Source of the DNA: an uncultured bacterium
Lineage (GTDB): Bacteria; Patescibacteriota; Minisyncoccia; Moranbacterales; GWC2-37-73
Assembly (NCBI GenBank): GCA_903861715.1
Contig: CAIOVI010000052.1
Span: 1-62,984, forward strand
Direction: 5' to 3'
DNA: 62,984 nucleotides
Part shown: piece by piece, positions 4,406-60,463 of the stretch
How the letters are laid out: each line of letters begins with the position of its first letter
Position numbering within the stretch: position 1 is the first letter of the stretch
Made by a program: the position numbers and the translations under genes
The notes under the pieces: generated by a model
Told to the model about the DNA's origin: nothing
Database searches by the model: none
What the model saw: only the letters and a program-made list of their open reading frames with translations

Positions 4406-4858
4406 TTAGAAATTCAAACCACTCAAATCGCCATTTAGAACAATTGGTTTCATATCAATAATTTCATCCACATAATGCATTCGCTCGCTTCGCGCTGGAA
4501 CAGGATTGAATAAAAATATTTTTTTGCCAAAACCATAAGCAAAACCCATTTCCATCAGCGCATTGCCACCAATATAACCATCAATGCCTTTTTTGCTTTC
4601 ATTTAAAACAAGAATCGCATCTGAGTTTTCAATATAGTCCCAATATCTTTTTATCAAATCAACGTCTTGCGCTTTTCGCATCAGAATATCACCATCTTTC
4701 GCCTTAGCAGTCATAAATTCCTCAAAAGTCAATTTGCCATCAATAATCTGCTGAGTGAAGTATGGAATGTTAACACTATGTCCCAAATTTTCCAAATCTT
4801 TTTTGAGCTCAATAATTTTTGGCGTGAAATCCACGCTTGAACAAATTGTGATTTTCAT
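4406..4858 (-). CDS. Nucleoside 2-deoxyribosyltransferase-like protein (putative)
   Basis: 150 aa. The pattern SDAILVLNESKKGIDGYIGGNALMEMGFAYGFGKKIFLFNPVP resembles the Nuc_deoxyri_tr2-type fold. No search was run. Confidence 0.4.
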   Translation of the reverse strand: MKITICSSVDFTPKIIELKKDLENLGHSVNIPYFTQQIIDGKLTFEEFMTAKAKDGDILMRKAQDVDLIKRYWDYIENSDAILVLNESKKGIDGYIGGNALMEMGFAYGFGKKIFLFNPVPARSERMHYVDEIIDMKPIVLNGDLSGLNF

Positions 4859-7174: not shown

Positions 7175-7283
7175 AAAAAAATAAAACGTGACACATCTTG
7201 TCGACCGTCAACTTCTGTCACAAAAATTTTCAAAAATAAAACGCGACACATCTCTGCGACCGCAGACTTCTGTCACAAAAAAA
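7175..7283. repeat. Tandem pair (~56 bp) of the 'gacagaagtctgcg/cgcagacttctgtc' hairpin family
   Basis: aaaataaaacg[t/c]gacacatct...cttctgtcacaaaaa occurs twice. A perfect version is at 40193-40226. Confidence 0.75.
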
Positions 7284-16286: not shown

Positions 16287-16314
16287 TTGCATTTTTGCTT
16301 GCTTTTTGTATAAT
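16287..16314 (+). promoter_or_regulatory. Promoter giving a near-leaderless MNT transcript
   Basis: TTGCAT (16287-16292), 16 nt spacer, and an extended -10 TGTATAAT (16307-16314). The ATG at 16321 is 7 nt downstream. Confidence 0.5.
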
Positions 16315-16320
16315 ATAATT

Positions 16321-16695
16321 ATGGGTAAATATGAAAAAGAAATTTCAATCATCAAAGATCAGATTGTGAAAGAATTTGCACCGGAAAAAATTATTCTTTT
16401 CGGTTCTTATGCTTGGGGAAAGCCAACTGATGATAGTGATGTGGATTTTTTGATTGTGCAAAACAGCAATCAAAAAAGAACTGAGCGCCAAAAAGCTTTA
16501 CAAGAAAAACTAGCAAAAAATGCAGTGCCAATGGATTTACTTGTCTATACACCAGTGGAAATTGAAAATAGCATCAATAAAAATCAAAATCTTTTTCTGG
16601 AAGATATCCTCAGAAACGGTAAGGCAATTTATGAAAACCCAAGCAGCAAACTTTCGATTAAGCTTCCTGAGCGTGAGTTAATTGTTTTGCAATAA
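16321..16695 (+). CDS. Minimal nucleotidyltransferase (MNT) of a HEPN/MNT toxin-antitoxin-type pair
   Basis: LFGSYAWGKPTDDSDVDFLIV is the G[SG]-x9-13-DxD polymerase-beta-like NTase motif. Confidence 0.8.
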   Translation: MGKYEKEISIIKDQIVKEFAPEKIILFGSYAWGKPTDDSDVDFLIVQNSNQKRTERQKALQEKLAKNAVPMDLLVYTPVEIENSINKNQNLFLEDILRNGKAIYENPSSKLSIKLPERELIVLQ

Positions 16696-16699
16696 AAAT

Positions 16700-17083
16700 A
16701 TGCCTACCGAATATGTCAAAAATTGGTTTTTGCGAGCAGACTAAGATCTAGCCGTTATTGAAGCGATTATCAATGAAGATAATATTTCACCAAATTCCAT
16801 TTGTTTCCATGCGCAACAAGCAGGCGAAAAATATTTGAAAGGTTTTTTGGCTCACCACGCTTTACACGTCAGAAAAATTCATAGTCTTAAAACACTCATC
16901 ATCGAATGCATTAATATTGACCAGGACTTTAAGGAATTGCTTGAGAGTGCTAGCACCTTGGATCAATTTTACATTGAATCTCGCTACCCCGATGACTATG
17001 TTGAATTTTCTCTCGCTCAAGCAAGGGAGGGGTATGTGGAAGCCAAGAAAATAAAAGAGTTGATTTTATTAAAAGTATTATAA
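16700..17083 (+). pseudogene. HEPN domain protein interrupted by an in-frame TAA (16742-16744)
   Basis: ATG at 16700: MPTEYVKNWFLRAD*DLAVIEAII...HAQQAGEKYLKGFLA...IESRYPDDY. The reading frame is the same on both sides of the stop. Confidence 0.7.
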
Positions 17084-17115
17084 AAAAACCGACATCAAAA
17101 ATGTCGGTTTTTTTG
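17083..17115. terminator. Bidirectional Rho-independent terminator
   Basis: aaaaaaaccgacat-caaaa-atgtcggttttttt. Confidence 0.8.
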
Positions 17116-17487
17116 TTGCCAAAATTTTAGTCAAAAAATCGCAATTGCGACGAATTGACCAATGCTGTGGCAAAAAAGCCGACCAGTAACATTGCAACCA
17201 GATGCATATGACTCAATTTGCAATGTTTAGTAAAACTTATCTTTCAGCCGCAAATTTCAAAAACGATTTTGGCTTATTTTAGGTATTTTTCGGCGTTTTT
17301 GGGGGCAAAAACTTGACAAAAGTTCTAAAGTGTGCAATGCTCAAGTTTAAGTTTCTTGACAATTAATTTGTTTGACGCTCTGCTTTTTGCTGACCGTATT
17401 TTCATTGAAACGAAATTCGCTCCCGTGAAAATGCGGTCATGGTGATCGCAGGCATGCAAACAAACAATAAAACATAGTGAGGTAGTT

Positions 17488-39175: not shown

Positions 39176-39248
39176 GGGCCGGTAGCTCACCTGGTAGAGC
39201 GCCTCATTTGCACTGAGGAGGTAGCGGGTTCAAGTCCTGTCCGGTCCA
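39176..39248 (+). tRNA. tRNA-Ala (anticodon UGC)
   Basis: A manual cloverleaf gives acceptor GGGCCGG/CCGGTCC with G3:U70, anticodon loop TTTGCAC and T-arm GGGTTCAAGTCCT. Confidence 0.9.
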
Positions 39249-39307
39249 CCGCGTAAAATTCGCTTCGCTCATCATGCGGCACAGCCATTGATGAAAAAGA
39301 ATTATAC

Positions 39308-39381
39308 GGGCGTGTAGCTCAGTTGGTTAGAGCGCGTCACTGATAATGACGAGGTCCCCAGTTCGAATCTAGGCACGCCCA
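39308..39381 (+). tRNA. tRNA-Ile (anticodon GAU)
   Basis: Acceptor GGGCGTG/CACGCCC, anticodon stem CGTCA/TGACG and loop CTGATAA. There is one C:A mismatch in the T stem. Confidence 0.85.
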
Positions 39382-39476
39382 CCCCAAAAACCAAAAGATC
39401 AAAAATCCTCTCATGGATTTTTTGTTTTTTAAAAATTTTAGAAAAGAAAGAACTAACTTTAAACCAGGGGTATGCA

Positions 39477-46389: not shown

Positions 46390-46755
46390 CTATTCTTTCT
46401 TTTTTTCTTGAAGTCTTTTTTCATCCCTAATTCTGCCAAGTTCTTCAAGCCTATTTTTTATCATTGCCTGAAGCTTCTTCCTGGAATAGCCTGCTAGCTT
46501 TGGATAATTTTCGGCAATAGCGTGAAACTGATCCTCATATATTTCATCTTTGACGCCATTATCTTCTTTAAACAACTCGATTTCCCTTTCAATCAATTTA
46601 TCCACTATTTCAGCCTCTTCGCGGGCCATATCCAAACCTGAAACTTTTTCTTCGGCTGATAAATTATTCAGTTTGTTTCTTTCCTCAGCCTGTTTATCAA
46701 ATTGTTCATCACTTTTTTTTCGCGAAGCTTCAAAATCTGATTGTCCAAATTCCAT
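46390..46755 (-). CDS. Hypothetical acidic coiled-coil protein
   Basis: An ORF only, rich in E and K. Confidence 0.45.
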   Translation of the reverse strand: MEFGQSDFEASRKKSDEQFDKQAEERNKLNNLSAEEKVSGLDMAREEAEIVDKLIEREIELFKEDNGVKDEIYEDQFHAIAENYPKLAGYSRKKLQAMIKNRLEELGRIRDEKRLQEKKKE

Positions 46756-46766
46756 AATAATATTTT

Positions 46767-47120
46767 TTAAGATTTATGATTTTCTTTGGGTTCGAAAACA
46801 TTCAGCACTGAGTTGACCAGCCAGAGAATCAAACTGAAAAAAACGGCTGTCCAAAAACCGCTCACCTGAAAACCAGGCACCACCGCGCTTGTAAGCACAA
46901 CTAAGGCAGCGTTAATCACCAACGTGAAAAACCCGAGCGTCAAAATGTTGATTGGCAAAGTCAGCACCAGCAAAATTGGACGAAGAATTGTGTTAAAAAA
47001 TCCCAACACCACCGCTACCACCAAAGCCACAAAAAAACTTTGCACAACAATTCCTGGAAGCAAATAGGCTGTGATCATCACCGCCAGAGCGCTCAAAAAC
47101 CAATGAATGATTGCTTTCAT
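46767..47120 (-). CDS. DUF360/phage-holin-4-like membrane protein
   Basis: Four hydrophobic segments. The LLPGIVVQSFFVALVVAVVLGFFNTILRPIL pattern matches the YvlD-type family. Confidence 0.6.
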   Translation of the reverse strand: MKAIIHWFLSALAVMITAYLLPGIVVQSFFVALVVAVVLGFFNTILRPILLVLTLPINILTLGFFTLVINAALVVLTSAVVPGFQVSGFWTAVFFSLILWLVNSVLNVFEPKENHKS

Positions 47121-47210
47121 AAATTTAAAATTAAAAAATTATACGTTTATTATACCATAAACAAAAAAAAGTCCTTACAAGGCCAATGACCCTCAATTAA
47201 CCCCATCAAA

Positions 47211-47248
47211 GTGTTACAAATAAATGCATATGCATTTATTTGTAACAC
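47211..47248. repeat. 38-bp perfect palindrome, copy 1
   Basis: gtgttacaaataaatgcat|atgcatttatttgtaacac. Confidence 0.95.
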
Positions 47249-47353
47249 TCACAAAATAAAATTTGCACTTGATTTTCACTGGCCAAAAATAATCGGCAGC
47301 TTCAGTGACTATTTTGATCATTCGTCCTGTAACACATATTTTCGACACTCAAA

Positions 47354-47992
47354 TCAAAGCTTGAATTTGCGTTTAAACTTTTCTTCATGCATCACCCTTT
47401 CCGCAACTAGGATATCAATAAACTTTTCAACATAGTAAACCTCGGCCAAAAAAAGAATTTCATCCTCACAGTCATAAGGATAAACCCAGACACTCTTCTG
47501 CATCTGAACAAAGCCTAACTCTTTTATCTTTTCTCGCAGAGCATTGCGAGCATTATTGTAAATTGCTGGCTTAGTTGGAATATCAAACATCAAAATTCGC
47601 CACTTGCCATCCCATTTTTTGGGTTTTTTTATCACAAGCGTTTCAAAACAAAACTCACAAACTCTTTTCTTGCCCTTATTTGTAAGCTCCACTCGGGTGA
47701 CGCCATTTTTTTCATTAACTATTTCAATAAGCTTTCGATGTTTAAGTGTCCTAATCGCTTGTTGCAGATTTTTTTTGGCATATTTTCGCTTCCCACCTTG
47801 ATCGCCCATTACCGCAACTAATCCTGGTGCAAGCACACCAGCAAAAACTATCCCACCCAAAGCCAATGTCATCAACACAAATTTCGCAGCTGTTGCTTTT
47901 TTGGAATCAGAACACAAAAAATCCTCCACATAATCACCGAGCTTCTTGTGAGTTTTTTTTGTTTCAATTTTCCTGCGCCTTTTTGTTTCCAT
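47354..47992 (-). CDS. PaaX-like/Cas2-fold regulator-like protein with an N-terminal TM segment
   Basis: WDGKWRILMFDIPTKPAIYNNARNALREKIKELGFVQMQKSVWVYP matches the PaaX-type W-x-W-(l)-v-F-d/s-IP...R..LR..L..lGF...q.svWv.P block. Confidence 0.55.
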   Translation of the reverse strand: METKRRRKIETKKTHKKLGDYVEDFLCSDSKKATAAKFVLMTLALGGIVFAGVLAPGLVAVMGDQGGKRKYAKKNLQQAIRTLKHRKLIEIVNEKNGVTRVELTNKGKKRVCEFCFETLVIKKPKKWDGKWRILMFDIPTKPAIYNNARNALREKIKELGFVQMQKSVWVYPYDCEDEILFLAEVYYVEKFIDILVAERVMHEEKFKRKFKL

Positions 47993-48098
47993 TGTTTTTA
48001 TTTTATTGTTTCTGTCTTATTCTCTCTATCTCATTCTCTCAAATTACTTCAAAGTAATATCCCCCCCCAATAATTGTAATTATAATCCCCGCTCCAAA

Positions 48099-48136
48099 GT
48101 GTGTCAAAAAAATGCATATGCCTAAATTTGTAACAC
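48099..48136. repeat. 38-bp palindrome family, degenerate copy 2
   Basis: gtgtgtcaaaaaaatgcatatgcctaaatttgtaacac. Confidence 0.8.
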
Positions 48137-48277
48137 TTAGTATGATATGTATAAAATTATCTACTCAATAAAACTATTCACTCAATATACCTAATCAATA
48201 TAACCAATTCAAAAATTATATAGATTCAATCTTACAACATCTCAAAAATACCCTCATCACTTCTTCTCTTTTTTAAG

Positions 48278-48315
48278 GTGTTACAAATAAATGCATATGC
48301 CTAACTTTGTAACAC
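48278..48315. repeat. 38-bp palindrome family, imperfect copy 3
   Basis: gtgttacaaataaatgcatatgcctaactttgtaacac. Confidence 0.9.
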
Positions 48316-48403
48316 TAGCCATGAAAATAACCAGTTAATAACATTTCTGCGTCCCAAATTTTACGCCAAACCAAAAAACCCCACAATCTTTATCCCTTTC
48401 AAA

Positions 48404-48441
48404 GTGTTACAATAAAATGCATATGCATTTTATTGTAACAC
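48404..48441. repeat. 38-bp palindrome family, perfect variant copy 4
   Basis: gtgttacaataaaatgcat|atgcattttattgtaacac. The palindrome extends to 48401-48444. Confidence 0.95.
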
Positions 48442-48568
48442 TTTGAAATAATTGGTTAAGTTTTTTATATTTTGCAATGCAAATAATAGCAAAAATTGAC
48501 TGATCTAAAGATTTTAAAAATTTTTCCCAAAAAAAGAGCTGGTCAGGCTCCTTGGGACTTCTGCATAT

Positions 48569-49309
48569 TTACCTACCAGCAAGTTGCCACAACATTTCGA
48601 ATTTTTTTCTTTCCATTTTTACAATATCCTCACTTTCAATCAAAACGGAAATCAATTCTTTTGTAGAAGAAACAAAGGCAACCTTGTTTTGATAAATAAA
48701 CTGAGTTGAGTCATAATTAAATTCTTTCGGCAAAAATCTCACTTCTCGCAAATATTCGCCGTCATAGCCCTCCTTAAACTTCTCAGCCCAACTGTTTTCA
48801 AACAACAACGCTCGCAGTTTAATTTTTCTTTTGATGCGAGTGGGGATATAATACTGCTCATCATATTTATTGCCAATGATTTCATAAATAGCCGAAGGGT
48901 CACCTAGCCACAAAAGTTCACTTGCATGTTTTTCAAGTGTGTCCTCGCAAACAGAAAAATAGCCCTCTTCCCCTTCAAAATATTTTACTTGGGGAGAGTG
49001 TGAATCTTTTTTCGAAACAGCTTTGAGCTGGGGAATAATCAAACTTATCTCTTTCGTTTTTTCTTCCATCTGGCTCAAAATCTTTTCAGGATTTTCTGCG
49101 CTCAAATGAATGCCACTTTTTGTTTTATACTTTCCCAGAAGACCTTTTGCCATCAACGATTTAGCAACCAAATAAACTGAAGTTCTTTTGACCCCAGCAT
49201 GCTTGGCGATTTTTGTCACCAAACTCGGACCCAGTTGAAGAGCGGACAGATATACCGCTATTTCATCATCACTCAGGCCTATTTTTTTGAGAGCATCTTG
49301 TGAATCCAT
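48569..49309 (-). CDS. TrmB-family transcriptional regulator
   Basis: N-terminal wHTH LKKIGLSDDEIAVYLSALQLGPSLVTKIAKHAGVKRTSVYLVAKSLMAKGL. Confidence 0.7.
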   Translation of the reverse strand: MDSQDALKKIGLSDDEIAVYLSALQLGPSLVTKIAKHAGVKRTSVYLVAKSLMAKGLLGKYKTKSGIHLSAENPEKILSQMEEKTKEISLIIPQLKAVSKKDSHSPQVKYFEGEEGYFSVCEDTLEKHASELLWLGDPSAIYEIIGNKYDEQYYIPTRIKRKIKLRALLFENSWAEKFKEGYDGEYLREVRFLPKEFNYDSTQFIYQNKVAFVSSTKELISVLIESEDIVKMERKKFEMLWQLAGR

Positions 49310-49540
49310 AATTGTTGATATTTATGACAACACTATTATTATGCTAACATAGGATGATTAAATTGTCAATATTATAGCTCAAAACAGGCCTTTTAAAGCT
49401 TTTATGATTATTCTAAAATATTAATCTATTGTTTCATTTATAAACATAATCTTTACATCCTCTAATTTTTATACAATAATCAACTGTTTGGATCTTTAAC
49501 AATCGCGGAATCTTCCGCAAAAAACAATGGAGGATAAAAA

Positions 49541-49975
49541 GTGACTAAATTTGACTATTTTTTAACCGGCTTATTAATCCTTATTTTTGGAGGATTTCTT
49601 GGTTTAGAATGGCATATGCTACGATTAATGGATCCGTGGGTATTCCCGACAGTTAATATCTGTTTATTTGTTGCAAGATTAGCATACAATGTCAGATACA
49701 ATATTAATCACATTAATCTCATGGCCTGCAAGCTAAAACTTGATTTCTATTACACTGGCAAACAAGTCTCCCGATTGAGATGGGGCGTGCGTCCATGCGC
49801 CTATAAGCTAACAAAGCTTGGCTGGGAGTTTTGGCCTGCTGGCTGGATTCCCAAATCTCCATATTTGTGGATTGAAATAAGAATAAAAAATATTTCTTTT
49901 TTTCAATACACTCTAGAGGCAAGACTAGGAGAAGATCTTGTAGGATTATGCACCCCACCTGAACCATGGTGGTAA
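49541..49975 (+). CDS. Hypothetical membrane protein (GTG start)
   Basis: RBS ggagg is 8 nt before the GTG. The N-terminus has TM segments and the C-terminal part is W-rich. Confidence 0.5.
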   Translation: MTKFDYFLTGLLILIFGGFLGLEWHMLRLMDPWVFPTVNICLFVARLAYNVRYNINHINLMACKLKLDFYYTGKQVSRLRWGVRPCAYKLTKLGWEFWPAGWIPKSPYLWIEIRIKNISFFQYTLEARLGEDLVGLCTPPEPWW

Positions 49976-50011
49976 AATTTCTTTTTAATTTTAACTTACT
50001 GAGGTGAAAAA

Positions 50012-50269
50012 ATGAAAGAAGAAGCCAAAAAACTGACTGCTCATAGTCTTGGTGTGATTAGCCTGCTCATCACTGCAATCGCTAGTACTCTCATGGTGAG
50101 TAAATTTTGCCCAGATCAAGGGACAGATGGAATGGTTGTTTTGTTAATAAAGGGATTACCGGCCATGTTGGAGGTCGGTACTATCGTTTGGGAATTTCAT
50201 TGGCTAAATAAAAGAGAGGGGCAACTAATGCATAAGCTATTAGTGAATCTCAAGAAGTACGCCAAATAA
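50012..50269 (+). CDS. Hypothetical small membrane protein
   Basis: RBS gaggtg. Two hydrophobic segments are present. A hairpin gctctacacgc...gcgtgcagagc (about 50291-50325) follows. Confidence 0.5.
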   Translation: MKEEAKKLTAHSLGVISLLITAIASTLMVSKFCPDQGTDGMVVLLIKGLPAMLEVGTIVWEFHWLNKREGQLMHKLLVNLKKYAK

Positions 50270-50356
50270 ACTCAACTGCTTTACATAATCTTGAAGCTCT
50301 ACACGCAGATGCGTGCAGAGCTTTATTTTTATATGAATTTCTTAACCTCCTCCCAT

Positions 50357-50394
50357 GTGTTACAAATAAATGCATATGCATTTATTTGTAACAC
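50357..50394. repeat. 38-bp perfect palindrome, copy 5 (identical to copy 1)
   Basis: gtgttacaaataaatgcatatgcatttatttgtaacac. Confidence 0.95.
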
Positions 50395-50438
50395 CCTGTT
50401 TAATGCCAGCACTATGTGCACAATTTTTATGTATAAAA

Positions 50439-51425
50439 CTATAAATTTTTCAGATAATCCCTTAAAATATCTTCCGCCTGCCCAGCATTTTCGGTTTCCA
50501 TAAGCTTGGCGCGTAGTTCTTTGGCGCCTTCAAACTCACTCACATAGGCTTTGAAATGTTTTTTCATGACGTGGTAGCCGTTGATTCCCTCGCTAGAAAG
50601 TTCTTTTTCAAAAAATTTCGCATGTTCAATCGCCACGCGAAATTTTTCAGCCAAAGAAATATTTTTGATGTCAATTTTTTCATTGAAAAACCAAGGATTG
50701 CCAAAAATTCCCCGGCCAATCATGATGCCATCCATGCCAGATTTTTCCGCTTTTTCTTGGCCATCTGCCAAACTCGCCACGTCGCCATTGCCAATAATCA
50801 CGACGCCGTTTTCTTTGGCCATTTCAACTATCTTCGGTGCCAATTCCCAATGAGCAGCAACCTCCGACATTTCTTTTTTGCTGCGCAAATGCACCGTCAA
50901 AGCCGCCGGCTTTTCGGCCAAGATTTCTGGCAGCCAAGTTTCTGATTCATCTTTGGAAAATCCGATGCGGGTTTTGACTGACACTGGCATTTGCCCAGCG
51001 CCCTCCTTGGCAGCGCGAATAATTTCACGAGCCAACTGAGGATTTTTGATCAAGGCGCTGCCCGCCCCCTGCTTGATCACCGCTTTGTCTGGACAACCCA
51101 TGTTGATGTCCACGCCATCAAAACCCAACTCAGCTATCAAAGCCGCCGCTTGTTTGATATTCTCCGGTTTGGAGCCAAAAATTTGCGCCACAATTGGACG
51201 TTCATTTTCTCCAAAACGAAGCTCCTTGAGAAAAACCGCTCGCCCCTTTTCACTGACCAAGCCATCAGCGCTGACAAATTCTGTGTAGGTCACATCAGGC
51301 TTGCCATATTTGGCCAACATTTGCCGCTGCGCAAAATCCGTCACATCCGCCATCGGCGCCAACACAAAAAACGGCTTTTTCTTTGTTGCCAATTGCTGCC
51401 AAAAATTTTGCTCTTCTTTTTTCAT
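50439..51425 (-). CDS. tRNA-dihydrouridine synthase
   Basis: FVLAPMADVTDFAQRQM...VDINMGCP...VSVKTRIG. The start is taken at the ATG at 51425. Confidence 0.9.
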   Translation of the reverse strand: MKKEEQNFWQQLATKKKPFFVLAPMADVTDFAQRQMLAKYGKPDVTYTEFVSADGLVSEKGRAVFLKELRFGENERPIVAQIFGSKPENIKQAAALIAELGFDGVDINMGCPDKAVIKQGAGSALIKNPQLAREIIRAAKEGAGQMPVSVKTRIGFSKDESETWLPEILAEKPAALTVHLRSKKEMSEVAAHWELAPKIVEMAKENGVVIIGNGDVASLADGQEKAEKSGMDGIMIGRGIFGNPWFFNEKIDIKNISLAEKFRVAIEHAKFFEKELSSEGINGYHVMKKHFKAYVSEFEGAKELRAKLMETENAGQAEDILRDYLKNL

Positions 51426-52339: not shown

Positions 52340-52441
52340 ACAACTAAAAAAGTCCTACTCTAGCCCGCCACTGAGCCAAAAGTGGATAGGCTGGAAAACC
52401 CTACATAAAAGGAAAGGACTTCTTTGAGTGTAGTTTTTTTA
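52340..52441 (+). ncRNA. Candidate ~100-nt structured RNA (unclassified)
   Basis: A hairpin agcc-cg-ccact-gagccaaa-agtgg-ata-ggct is followed by a second hairpin ctaca...tgtag and then a T7 run (52434-52440). Confidence 0.4.
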
Positions 52442-52541
52442 TTTAAATAAATCGCTAATCCAAACTAATTTACTCACCAATAATCGCGAACTAATTCGAG
52501 ATAATTTGAGCTAAATTCGGGTCGATTCGTGAAATTAATCC

Positions 52542-53114: not shown

Positions 53115-53219
53115 GGATATAAACACTAATCAGTCACTAATTTTTTCACTAATAATCACGAATAATCTATTCGAGATAATTCGAGACTTAATTCGAGAAG
53201 ATTAGCGATAAAAATCCTC

Positions 53220-53708: not shown

Positions 53709-53872
53709 ATGATATAAATCACTAATCTACACGAATTCATCACTAATAATCACGAATGATATAAATCCCTAACCAGCACGAATTTTTTCGCCAATAATTG
53801 CGAATTAAAAAATGCAAAAAATTAGAGATAATTCGAGAAAAATTAGAGTTTGATTCGTGATTTAATTCCACA

Positions 53873-54750: not shown

Positions 54751-54878
54751 AAGCTTTCTTCCTTATCATTCTCTCCTTTCGAAGGAGAGATGTCTGAAAG
54801 ACAGAGAGGTCAGAAGCTTTCTTCCTTATTGTTCTCTCCTTTAATAAGGAGAGATGTCCGTAAGACAGAGAGGTTATC
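54751..54878. repeat. Tandem duplication (~63 bp x2) of a double-hairpin unit
   Basis: aagctttcttccttat..ttctctccttt..aaggagagatgtc..aagacagagaggt occurs twice. Confidence 0.8.
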
Positions 54879-58807: not shown

Positions 58808-60463
58808 TTATTTCTCCATCACCTTCCGCATCAGCGAATAAGGCGCGATTCCTTTTTTGTTAATTTCAATAAAATATAGTCCCCCGTGTCCGCCGTGAGC
58901 CGAAGCCACTTCTTCGCCTTGTTCATTTTTAATCTGCAAAATTTTAACGGGAATATTTTTTTCCTTGGTCATGATTTCCACGGCGTCTTTGGCATAAAGC
59001 GCGTTGTGAACTTTCATCTTCAGGATTTTGCCTTCCACTGCCAAAATTTCACCAACTGACTGGGAATTTTTTCCAACCACTTCCCCTTCAAAATTGTGCT
59101 CGGGCTCGTTGCCCAGCAAAAAACCTTTGGTGTAGCCACGATTGACGGTTTTTTCAATTTCGCTCTGGGCCCATTTTTGAGCTTTTTTGACCTCCTGAGC
59201 TGTTTTTTGACCCTCAATTGCGTCCAGAACCCTCCGATAGGCCCGCACCACGCTGGACACATAAAACACGCTCTTATTGCGCCCCTCGATTTTAAACGAG
59301 CTTACGCCCGCTTTTTTGAGCTCGCACAGATGCGAAAGTAGGTTCAAATCCCGACTATTGAAAAAATAGGTGCCATGAGAGTCTTCTTCCAAAAGAACCG
59401 CCTTGCCACTCTGAACCTCCGCAACTTCCATGGTTTTATACTCGCTACAACTACATTTGTCGGATTCTAGTTCTCCAGCTGGTGGGTTGATTTTTTCTGT
59501 CTCTCCGGCAGACAAGGATTTTGAGTTTTGAATTCCACATTCCGCACTTCGCATTTCAGGTTTTGAGTTCCACGTTCCACGTTCCGCGCTATGCGTTTCG
59601 CGATAACCCCAGCGGCACGGCTGCGTGCAATCTCCCAAATTAGCACTTTTGTTGCTCAGCCATTTGCTCAAAATGCAGCGACCTGAATAACTCATGCACA
59701 TCGCTCCATGCACAAAATATTCCAACTCCAATTTTGGCACTCTCTTTTTGATTTCAATGATGTCTGCCAAAGTTGTTTCCCGCGCCAGCACCACCCGCTC
59801 GATTCCTTGCTCAAACCAAAACTGGGCCGCTTGCCAATTGGTCGTGTTGGCTTGGGTGCTCAAATGAATTGGCACCTGCGGCAAATGTTTTTTTGCCAAC
59901 CTGAGGATGCCCGGATCGGAAATAATCAAACCGTCAACTGAAATTGTTTTCAAAAATTTCAGATGTTTTTCAATGATTGGCAAATGATAATTGTGCGCAT
60001 AAATGTTAAGCGTCACATAAATTTTTTTTTCATGGCTGTGCACAAACTCGCAAGCTTCTTTCAAATCAGCTTCCGAGAAGGCATTGATGCGAGCTCGCAT
60101 TGAAACGCTCGGCAATCCGCAATAAACCGCATCCGCCCCGAAGGTGATGGCATATTTGAGTTTTTCCAGACTCCCCGCCGGCGCCAGAAGTTCGATTTTA
60201 TTTTCTTTCTGCTTTAAATTCTTCACATTTTTAAAAATCCCTTTTGTTTTTAGGGCTTTGGCGGACAGGCCCGCCGGCGCCAGAAGTTCGATTTTATTTT
60301 CTTTCTGCTTTAAATTCTTCACATTTTTAAAAATCCCTTTTGTTTTTAGGGCTTTGGCGGACAGGCCCGCCGGCGCCAGAAGTTCTATTTTTTGGCTTTT
60401 TTGGGTCATAATTTCGTTTCCTCTTGCATAGTCCATCCTACGCCTTTTTAAAGATTTGGTCAA
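58808..60463 (-). CDS. Peptidase U32 family protein with tandemly duplicated N-terminus and an internal insert
   Basis: ELLAPAGSLEKLKYAITFGADAVYCG...LSTQANTTN...CTQPCRWGY. The start is uncertain; candidate Met residues are at 60463 and 60412. Confidence 0.85.
   Translation of the reverse strand: MTKSLKRRRMDYARGNEIMTQKSQKIELLAPAGLSAKALKTKGIFKNVKNLKQKENKIELLAPAGLSAKALKTKGIFKNVKNLKQKENKIELLAPAGSLEKLKYAITFGADAVYCGLPSVSMRARINAFSEADLKEACEFVHSHEKKIYVTLNIYAHNYHLPIIEKHLKFLKTISVDGLIISDPGILRLAKKHLPQVPIHLSTQANTTNWQAAQFWFEQGIERVVLARETTLADIIEIKKRVPKLELEYFVHGAMCMSYSGRCILSKWLSNKSANLGDCTQPCRWGYRETHSAERGTWNSKPEMRSAECGIQNSKSLSAGETEKINPPAGELESDKCSCSEYKTMEVAEVQSGKAVLLEEDSHGTYFFNSRDLNLLSHLCELKKAGVSSFKIEGRNKSVFYVSSVVRAYRRVLDAIEGQKTAQEVKKAQKWAQSEIEKTVNRGYTKGFLLGNEPEHNFEGEVVGKNSQSVGEILAVEGKILKMKVHNALYAKDAVEIMTKEKNIPVKILQIKNEQGEEVASAHGGHGGLYFIEINKKGIAPYSLMRKVMEK
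60176..60392. repeat. 96-bp tandem repeat (2.3 copies) inside the U32 peptidase 5' end
   Basis: cgccggcgccagaagttcgattttattttctttctgctttaaattcttcacatttttaaaaatcccttttgtttttagggctttggcggacaggcc starts at 60176, 60272 and 60368. Confidence 0.9.

Follow-up and report, generated by a model that had tools for sequence, protein, structure and literature searches.

The 62,984-nucleotide (nt) contig CAIOVI010000052.1 (assembly GCA_903861715.1) of an uncultured Patescibacteriota bacterium, the whole of which we call the window, carries the gene of a PaaX-like protein surrounded by copies of a 38-bp palindrome. Comparison of this locus with its relatives indicates that the palindromes are probably the binding site of the PaaX-like protein, which would thereby regulate its own gene. 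This reading builds on direct observation of where the sites lie, of their overlap with a promoter, of their conservation across lineages and of the dyad co-variation between their halves. We therefore read the locus as a variant of the PaaX-type repressor and operator rather than as a novel mobile element.

The 38-mer GTGTTACAAATAAATGCATATGCATTTATTTGTAACAC is present in two identical, exact copies at 47211-47248 and 50357-50394, and three related copies occupy the 576-bp gap between the PaaX-like gene and a neighbouring TrmB-family regulator gene. These three, which we designate O1 (48099-48136), O2 (48278-48315) and O3 (48397-48448), had been described in an earlier reading of the letters alone (the sequence-only reading) as degenerate, imperfect and a perfect variant, within a gap of 0.57 kb. 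Our measurements agree with this description: mismatches between the arms of the copies starting at 47211, 48099, 48278, 48404 and 50357 number 0, 6, 4, 0 and 0 of 19, respectively. One arm of O1 is altered to GTGTGTCAA, which supplies a TTGACA -35 box on the minus strand. O2 keeps its arms and core intact, all four of its mismatches falling in an asymmetric spacer, while the copy at 48404 carries a TAAAAT spacer on both sides and is part of a 52-bp perfect palindrome (48397-48448) whose symmetry reaches 26-nt arms.

The two exact copies differ in setting. The site at 47211-47248 lies 105 nt past the stop codon of the PaaX-like gene as its downstream bracket and scores 42.1 against a lineage-weighted position weight matrix (PWM). 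The site at 50357-50394 is placed between a convergent 85-amino-acid (aa) open reading frame (ORF) and the gene for Dus; it forms the right bracket of a block made up of the TrmB gene and small ORFs, of which O3 is the left bracket. A third site after the TrmB block, equivalent to that at 50357-50394, is also found in lineage L029.

The palindrome set is a real, non-random feature of the window. A match to the 38-mer at three or fewer mismatches arose in 0 of 100 dinucleotide-preserving shuffles of the window, and a pattern in which only the two 9-nt arms were fixed retrieved exactly the five sites at 47211, 48099, 48278, 48404 and 50357 (0.02 by chance). The half-site GTGTTACAA occurs nine times, against 0.28 expected, and all nine occurrences fall inside the five copies. 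A sixth copy was sought in the window with up to 12 mismatches allowed and none was found, in keeping with the sequence-only reading; the PWM scan brought out one distant relative at 17186-17228, with a score of 16.9 against a maximum of 11 per 63 kb in shuffled window sequence.

Copy number is low as well. Judged from this one 63-kb window and one fragmented metagenome-assembled genome (MAG), it amounts to five sites plus one weak site in the window and matches on five contigs of the related MAG. By this count the palindrome does not look like a generic repetitive extragenic palindrome (REP) scattered across the genome, which the sequence-only reading had named as a refuting outcome. Since the same palindromes recur in four independent lake-metagenome runs, in a Joint Genome Institute (JGI) contig (L010) and in one NCBI MAG, they are not an assembly artefact.

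The evidence that ties the palindrome to transcription comes from the promoter of the PaaX-like gene (47354-47992, minus strand). A sigma-70-type promoter, TTGACA-N17-TATAAT, lies at 48079-48107 on the minus strand; it is the only 12/12 match to the sigma-70 consensus in 46700-50600, it points into the PaaX-like gene, and its -35 box sits inside O1. Because the altered arm of O1 is itself the -35 hexamer, the degeneracy of this copy is functional; the same altered-arm variant is kept in the relative (L010 7218-7255). O2 and O3 are located 179 and 305 bp further upstream. The sequence-only reading had regarded three stacked sites as suited to cooperative repression: the proximal copy does overlap the -35 box of a 12/12 promoter, and the further copies may allow cooperative binding.

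Conservation of this region is unusually high. The segment 47993-48098 on the minus strand, which comprises the -10 core promoter and the 5' leader, is 92% identical to L010 (z = 18.5). The coding sequence reaches 84%, and elsewhere the intergenic DNA can hardly be aligned (z = 0.6-2.7). Read off their sequences, the upstream sites of homologues also appear to overlap or abut -35/-10-like hexamers. The leader itself holds a small hairpin, ATTACTTTGAAGTAAT, and may be subject to post-transcriptional control.

To place the locus among its relatives, GTDB genomes and JGI metagenomes were scanned with ATGCATATGC-N6-TTGTAACAC. Matches came from one Moraniibacteriota MAG and from lake metagenome contigs; the closest public relatives are Moraniibacteriota/Moranbacteria MAGs, and the sequence is typical of Patescibacteria. 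Homologue sites were first detected with the bare 8-mer GCATATGC, and ten lineages were compared: the window itself and L010, L022, L023, L026, L029, L030, L031, L033 and L032, whose PaaX-like proteins are 88, 73, 73, 62, 64, 57, 53, 42 and 38% identical to that of the window.

In 10/10 of these lineages (38-100% identity), palindromes of one common design stand on both sides of the PaaX-like gene: an arm and an inverted arm, each separated by about 7 bp from the core GCATATGC between them. The upstream site is centred 43-125 nt before the start codon and the downstream site is at most about 110 nt from the stop codon, with PWM scores of 15-44 for the bracketing sites against the null maximum of 11. 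The core is near-invariant, changing to GCAATTGC in the most divergent lineage, and the arms are lineage-specific (TTACAA, TTGCAA, TGTCAA, TGTAAA and ACGTAAA). This two-sided arrangement of sites around a gene is unusual and conserved.

The bracketing sites are present with or without a TrmB gene nearby, an observation that bears on a second candidate binder. The sequence-only reading had proposed operators for one of two helix-turn-helix (HTH) proteins, and its identification of a TrmB-family regulator within the locus is upheld by a PF01978 match of 45 bits. As an owner of the palindromes, TrmB has a well-supported winged-helix domain to offer; in 6/8 lineages with enough flanking sequence its gene is no more than 2 kb away from the PaaX-like one, and in the window and L029 (sites at 4676 and 6403) palindromes also enclose the TrmB block. 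The sites nevertheless remain in L022 and L031, for which gene calling over the 4-6 kb of fetched flank gave no TrmB (the short L032 and L033 contigs show none either), and a TrmB homologue in L011 has no palindrome nearby.

The promoter regions of TrmB point the same way. The palindrome is absent from all six examined, and the TrmB/small-ORF intergenic regions (49310-49540 in the window; L010, L023, L026, L029 and L030) have other motifs in common: AAATATTGACAA, GTCAATAAT and TGTTG-N10-CAACA. Because sites persist where no TrmB was called and TrmB promoters carry these other motifs, the palindrome is to be associated with the PaaX-like gene. The operator proposal is thus the best supported of the earlier readings, with the PaaX-like protein, whose gene is bracketed throughout, as the likely binder and TrmB as an improbable one.

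We further asked of the palindromes whether they look like duplex sites or hairpins. When 33 distinct sites were compared, complementarity held for 73% of the 19 potential pairs, and the half-sites co-vary across lineages, with 96 double changes compared with 43 in shuffles (0/500 shuffles as high). In lineages C-I, the seven others scored for symmetry, 3-8 of 19 pairs are broken in all sites but one; broken pairs are concentrated in the spacers, and arms and core are retained at fixed spacing. Such a pattern is expected of a dyad-symmetric, double-stranded protein-binding site rather than of an obligatory hairpin, and the palindromes would accordingly be read as duplex DNA. Two L010 palindromes are identical to those of the window at 38/38 positions, between two species whose genes are 77-84% identical, a sign of strong constraint on the sequence.

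A role as a REP-like or RNA-level hairpin, whether as terminator, mRNA-stabilising stem, RNase III target or target of a hairpin-binding transposase, can draw on the lineage A and B copies, which are perfect 19-bp stems with compensated spacer variants, on the many copies in the relative that lie 5-25 nt past stop codons, and on the copy at 50357-50394, which a pattern scan flagged as terminator-like. It is set back by the broken pairs of lineages C-I, where arm and core sequences are kept, and by stem composition: the stems are AT-rich (5 G-C pairs of 17), 4/5 copies have no U-tract, and only the 50357 copy passes even a lenient terminator scan, so that the usual combination of a G+C-rich stem and a U-tract is lacking. 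Canonical terminator hairpins sit separately beside the palindromes, at 50293-50332 and 17084-17120. The first of these, GAAGCTCTACACGCA..TGCGTGCAGAGCTT followed by a T-run on the plus strand, was read from the sequence as terminator-like and ends 25 nt before the right palindrome.

No Y1 or HUH transposase accompanies the sites, and their copies are few. These features, together with the imperfection of the sites outside this lineage, speak against the earlier suggestion of subterminal hairpins of an element transposed as single-stranded DNA, and they leave the hairpin explanation as a whole highly improbable. A REPtron consists of a REP-associated tyrosine transposase (RAYT) gene flanked by its cognate REP palindromes, which number tens to hundreds of copies. 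The present locus resembles this arrangement in that a gene is bracketed by a palindrome that its product presumably binds, with further copies in intergenic DNA after genes, but it differs in the absence of an HUH/Y1 transposase, the handful of copies, the promoter overlap and the mostly imperfect hairpins.

The protein to which we assign the sites is 212 aa long and matches PF20803 (PaaX_M) at residues 125-204 with 74 bits, against a cut-off of 24. The sequence-only reading had called it a PaaX-like protein of Cas2 fold with an unusual N-terminal transmembrane segment; the fold and a hydrophobic N-terminal stretch were both recovered. A basic N-terminus is followed by the hydrophobic stretch (residues 37-62), by a putative recognition helix with its wing (about 72-115) and by the Cas2-like domain (120-212). 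The stretch at 37-62 is conserved, and over 19 residues its mean Kyte-Doolittle value is 2.28. Either a membrane anchor or a hydrophobic remnant of the winged-helix helices H1-H2 may be represented by it.

Structure prediction and fold comparison were most informative for the C-terminal part. The predicted local distance difference test (pLDDT) score of the AlphaFold2 (AF2) model is about 90 at residues 120-212 and below 50 at the N-terminus, with a helix at 73-85 and a beta-hairpin at 89-103 predicted at pLDDT <60. Foldseek comparison with the PDB returned Cas2-family proteins, mostly type II-A, as the top 21 matches (probability 1.0), sharing 22-29% identity over about 80 residues in the case of the type II-A structures; the E. 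coli PaaX structure 8a39 ranked only 36th. The beta1 segment ILMFDIPT...GF.Q.S aligns to ILMFDMPT...GF.Q.S of Streptococcus pyogenes Cas2, and its aspartate, D137, is invariant in 35 homologues.

Profile searches were run as well. TIGR02277, the full-length PaaX equivalog, reached 24.7 bits (cut-off 264.55) over residues 102-185 only, and TIGR01573 (Cas2) reached 22.9 bits, just under its cut-off of 24.5. The PaaX_C effector domain gave no match, the protein stopping at residue 212 directly after the Cas2-like domain, and no HTH family was matched in the N-terminal 126 residues by Pfam at up to E <= 10. An hhalign comparison aligned residues 72-135 with residues 53-114 of PaaX (H3-wing-WDGKW) at E = 0.0019 and a probability of 14%, a weak match that serves as a lead only. 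A sequence search against the PDB returned nothing significant. PADLOC gave weak Cas2/Cas2_II matches for the PaaX-like protein and recognised no defence system at the locus.

The family is large: 580 homologues were retrieved, mostly 54-88% identical and about 200-215 aa long, and clustering at 50% identity gave 291 clusters with E <= 1e-30 and 2274 with E <= 1e-10. No phage homologue of the protein was found. These proteins most likely represent an uncharacterised PaaX/Cas2-like regulator family that is widespread in bacteria of the candidate phyla radiation (CPR).

PaaX itself offers the closest functional parallel. According to a review (PMC9493321), the E. coli protein binds TGATTC-N27-GAATCA, covers 39 bp in footprints and shuts off its own promoter through steric hindrance. 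The window locus shares with PaaX of E. coli and Pseudomonas the central Cas2-like domain PF20803, a recognition-helix/wing/WDGKW segment that is alignable, if weakly, and an operator of widely spaced inverted hexamers about 38-39 bp long, here TTACAA-N20-TTGTAA within the 38-bp dyad. In both systems, moreover, a site overlaps the promoter of the regulator, here through the copy at 48099-48136 on the -35 box, which would imply steric autorepression. The sequence-only reading had known of no described system with this combination; the resemblance in arm spacing to the PaaX operator makes that assertion half right.

The differences from PaaX are nonetheless considerable. The protein has 212 rather than 316 aa, lacks PaaX_C and carries a strongly hydrophobic N-terminal segment, and its fold is nearer to Cas2 than to the PaaX structure 8a39. 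The site has an additional invariant core, GCATATGC, and every lineage has a second copy past the stop codon. Among the neighbours of eight long-flank loci and among the window ORFs, paa catabolic genes are absent.

We propose that the 38-bp palindrome would be this lineage's fully symmetric form of a three-part operator with a TTACAA-type outer arm, read as double-stranded DNA by the adjacent PaaX-like protein. The Cas2-like domain would hold the dimer together, so that each outer arm is met by one recognition-helix/wing module at a separation of about 26 bp, with the dimer core or the basic N-terminal tails touching the central GCATATGC. Since O1 overlaps the -35 box of the gene's own promoter, its occupation would occlude RNA polymerase and produce negative autoregulation, as PaaX does at the Px promoter. 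O2, O3 and the post-stop site could support cooperative binding or a loop that encloses the gene, and the 48404/50357 pair could likewise enclose the TrmB and small membrane-protein block. We hold this looping detail with less assurance than autoregulation itself.

Operators both upstream and downstream, as in the looping repressors of lac (O1/O2/O3), gal (OE/OI) and deo, are consistent with looping repression at this locus. The putative loop here differs in enclosing the whole of the regulator's own gene, with about 720-890 bp between sites.

For the Cas2-like domain, the nearest relatives are the type II-A Cas2 proteins of S. pyogenes, Streptococcus thermophilus and Enterococcus faecalis, which share its ferredoxin-like fold, its beta1 ILMFD(I/M)PT and the GF.Q.S motif. 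When complexed with Cas1, the Cas2 dimer rests on double-stranded DNA, which provides a model for contact with the central core. The loci differ from CRISPR systems in having no Cas1, CRISPR array or other cas genes, the domain is fused to an N-terminal region, and the palindromes are 88-2000 bp apart with ordinary genes or intergenic DNA between them. A CRISPR-like interpretation, in which the Cas2-like gene, the 38-bp repeats and the intervening, non-conserved 'spacers' would belong together, was considered and discarded: the window holds no array and no cas1, and no phage match was found between palindromes.

Several observations weigh against assigning the palindromes to autoregulation by the PaaX-like protein. 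Its N-terminal DNA-binding region is unrecognised by Pfam HTH models and falls where AF2 is unreliable; if residues 37-62 were a true transmembrane helix, only a partial winged helix would be left. Conservation is higher in the Cas2-like domain than in the putative DNA-binding part, and the beta1 aspartate is retained, hints that the domain may do more than dimerise. In most cases the downstream site falls between convergent genes, with no promoter there to regulate, and promoter occlusion alone therefore cannot account for half of the pattern. Lineages A and B hold three perfectly symmetric spacer variants (ATAAAT, TAAAAT and AAAAAA), which readout by a protein alone does not predict. Finally, in a relative, palindrome units flank cassettes of an MntA-like nucleotidyltransferase and a HEPN-like protein (MNT/HEPN), about 50-150 nt upstream of likely promoters and in two genomic contexts.

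These points lead to the question of mobility. The sequence-only reading had proposed that the palindromes delimit a mobile cassette of about 3.2 kb, an idea that the syntenic locus of a second species, L010, contradicts: there, Obg, holin-like, PaaX-like, TrmB, a 132-aa ORF and Dus genes follow in the same setting, at 77-88% identity (proteins 74-93% identical), with palindromes at matching positions. The PaaX-like gene adjoins Dus in four lineages, including more distant relatives at 73-78% identity. One gene order was found in 20/20 contigs read that encode an identical PaaX-like protein, all with the same neighbours, and an empty site was sought among them and not found. The syntenic palindromes of the relative and the lack of an empty site together argue that no recent 3.2-kb mobile insertion took place.

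Nor did the assemblies reveal movement. In four runs, assembled Logan contigs, as distinct from reads, contained no excision or inversion junctions and had uniform depth; these contigs break at the three perfect palindromes because the k-mer length of 31 is shorter than 38. Pfam tags called no integrase, transposase, Cas1 or recombinase near any of 10 loci.

Over longer evolutionary distances, the picture is less static. Block order in the window runs Dus, small ORFs divergent from TrmB, PaaX-like, holin, and in L023 it runs Dus, PaaX-like, TrmB divergent from a small ORF, holin; the breakpoints between lineages fall at palindrome positions. A 109-bp unit of hairpin plus palindrome at the right end of the window locus is 93% identical to a unit at the other side of the locus in L010. 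In the relative, an MNT/HEPN cassette (95% identical, both palindromes included) follows fusA in L012, L013 and L007 and an aldo-keto reductase gene in L015, and L012 and L013 carry different genes beyond the shared palindrome unit.

Such rearrangements support the main rival reading, in which the palindromes are module-boundary or recombination sites that delimit the PaaX-like gene, the TrmB/small-ORF block and the MNT/HEPN cassettes. Two perfect palindromes are at once direct and inverted repeats, so that homologous or site-specific recombination could excise, invert or re-insert the module between them. Brackets on both sides of every module, including sites between convergent genes, would suit this role, as would the changes of block order with breakpoints at palindromes, the two contexts of the MNT/HEPN cassette, the different genes beyond the shared unit in L012 and L013, the non-homologous slot ORFs beside the PaaX-like gene and the terminator-plus-palindrome unit found at opposite ends of the locus in two species. 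Opposed to it are the absence of called integrase, transposase or Cas1 genes, the single arrangement among contigs with an identical protein and the uniform depth without alternative junctions. The overlap with a promoter and the family-wide conservation favour a regulatory role first, and the rearrangements may be an incidental result of repeated operators.

The sites also lack the architecture of known recombination substrates. Like pdif modules and integron attC cassettes, the loci have gene modules, toxin-antitoxin pairs included, between short palindromic sites in different contexts. The XerC/D-type 11-6-11 layout of pdif is not seen here, however, and attC differs in its R and L boxes and extrahelical bases, none of which is present, nor is there a nearby integrase; the modules here have their own promoters and mixed orientations. 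Taken together, the claim of recombination sites is not supported for a recent cassette and survives as a long-term boundary role, in view of the breakpoints at palindromes, to which we give a small but real chance. Under the operator reading that we prefer, the repeated palindromes could as a by-product be hot spots for inversion or transposition of the bracketed blocks over evolutionary time.

A more far-reaching version would combine the Cas2-domain protein, possibly membrane-anchored, and the palindromes into a hitherto unrecognised CPR-specific system that marks bracketed modules and helps to excise, invert or insert them. Besides the gene of the protein itself, such modules would comprise MNT/HEPN pairs and TrmB together with the hypervariable small membrane proteins. 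We consider this a long shot. If true, it would give a Cas2 relative a role in DNA transactions independent of Cas1, or establish an evolutionary link between PaaX and Cas2, and the locus would gain in interest if the Cas2-like protein acted on DNA modules beyond repressing them.

The bracketed cassettes deserve description in their own right. In the relative, the palindrome ends a composite repeat of about 120 bp that contains a second dyad of palindrome type, TGTAAAATCCCGCATATGCGGGATTTTACA, followed by a T-rich run. The composite unit flanks the MntA-like/HEPN-like cassette on both sides, and copies were located at L012 1234-1354 and 2135-2254, L013 881-1000, L015 957-1076 and L006 648-753. 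The dyad TGTAAAATCCCGCATATGCGGGATTTTACA resembles the sites of L031, whose homologue is 53% identical, and a paralogue may thus exist as a second binder. L011 holds another palindrome-bracketed toxin-antitoxin pair.

The window has a counterpart of this cassette around its distant site. The MntA-like nucleotidyltransferase gene lies at 16306-16695, with PADLOC matches to PDC-S09/M05A, and is followed by a HEPN-like ORF from about 16702. An in-frame TAA at 16741-16743 interrupts the N-terminal part of the latter, so that an 82-aa ORF remains at 16835-17083; this toxin gene may be a pseudogene. Past this ORF come the canonical terminator at 17084-17120 and then the palindrome-type site AACATTGCAA..GCATATGA..TTGCAATGTT at 17186-17228, so that the layout of a terminator followed by a palindrome, seen at 50293-50394, is repeated at 17084-17228.

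Positions of this kind, at transcription-unit boundaries past terminators, would also suit chromosome-organising sites, at which a membrane-associated protein tethers or insulates DNA in the manner of Noc/NBS, ParB/parS or MatP/matS, any effects on transcription being secondary. Few, strongly conserved sites cluster at the binder's own gene, as parS does around parB; membrane attachment could be provided by the conserved hydrophobic segment; and the gene family is conserved and appears chromosomal. Yet the protein has no ParB or Noc fold, and the promoter overlap indicates autoregulation. The hydrophobic segment may instead be an H1-H2 remnant, and the GC skew is monotonic across the window, giving no sign of an origin or terminus near the locus. 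We judge this explanation very unlikely.

The operator reading, by comparison, pairs a large uncharacterised family with a precise, conserved site of 38-42 bp and a clear promoter, and so yields a predicted regulator-operator pair in organisms that are difficult to culture. To our knowledge, almost nothing has been established experimentally about transcriptional regulation in Patescibacteria, and a literature search of incomplete coverage found nothing linking PaaX-like proteins to CPR bacteria. As a minimal PaaX, composed of a recognition module and a Cas2-like domain without an effector, the protein bears on the relationships among Cas2, VapD and PaaX and raises the question of the Cas2 dimer as a DNA-reading scaffold. 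The constant post-gene site and the bracketed toxin-antitoxin cassettes suggest a layer beyond repression, be it looping, insulation or module shuffling.

The remaining genes of the locus form the TrmB block, which is flanked, together with the PaaX-like gene, by genes for a holin-4-like membrane protein and Dus. The TrmB-family regulator (246 aa; 48569-49309, minus strand) diverges from the small membrane-protein genes and has a promoter, TTGACA-N17-TAGCAT, at 49341-49369. Among the motifs of this intergenic region, AAATATTGACAA coincides with a -35 region and TGTTG-N10-CAACA with a dyad in the 5' untranslated region; all three motifs are candidate TrmB operators. On the plus strand follow ORFs for predicted membrane proteins of 144 aa (49541-49975; GGAGG Shine-Dalgarno sequence) and 85 aa (50012-50269; GAGGT Shine-Dalgarno sequence), neither of which gave a family match.

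The first of these ORFs occupies a variable 'cargo' slot: it is 34% identical to the 132-aa ORF of L010 and unrelated to the ORFs of other lineages in the same slot, and across lineages no homology was found among the small ORFs beside the PaaX-like gene except for this pair. The 85-aa ORF is missing from the syntenic locus of the relative. Both had been singled out earlier as small membrane proteins with strong Shine-Dalgarno sites unlike those of their neighbours, which the counts confirm: a 5-mer Shine-Dalgarno core precedes 3/45 window genes, and two of these are the small ORFs of the locus. All three such starts (17488, 49541 and 50012) belong to small predicted membrane proteins beside palindrome-type sites, and translation initiation of the remaining genes appears to proceed without Shine-Dalgarno sequences.

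Several candidate loci were set aside. The arm-pattern match on a viral contig (L001, from IMG/VR) is due to chance and lacks the central core; its TTGTAAC/GTTACAA repeats at 470-770, beside a repressor-like HTH gene, form an unrelated operator cluster. L003, L008, L009, L014, L016-L018 and L020 were treated as chance one-arm matches, with no full palindrome at eight or fewer mismatches, and the five of these eight loci that were PWM-scored reached only 12-17. Apparent strain-level variation of the slot in L023, L024 and L025 was also rejected, as the DNA is identical and the gene calls alone differ.

Elsewhere in the window, adjacent genes for tRNA-Ala(TGC) and tRNA-Ile(GAT) at 39176-39383 are arranged as in a ribosomal RNA (rRNA) spacer, with no rRNA gene detected in the window. 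Tandem repeats lie at 60174-60391 (96 bp x 2.3 copies, 99% identity, within the ORF 58808-60463), 54751-54874 (63 bp x 2.0) and 7177-7281 (55 bp x 1.9), and the segment 60482-60533 matches L011 1816-1867 at 90%. The genes rpsF, ssb and rpsR are each preceded, at a distance of 30-50 nt, by a 17-nt motif, ATTCGAGATAATTYGAG (52494-52510, 53169-53185 and 53821-53837), and 30-nt repeats related to it occur at 52441, 53708 and 53755. The genes of this ribosomal/SSB cluster may have the motif in common as a promoter or regulatory element.

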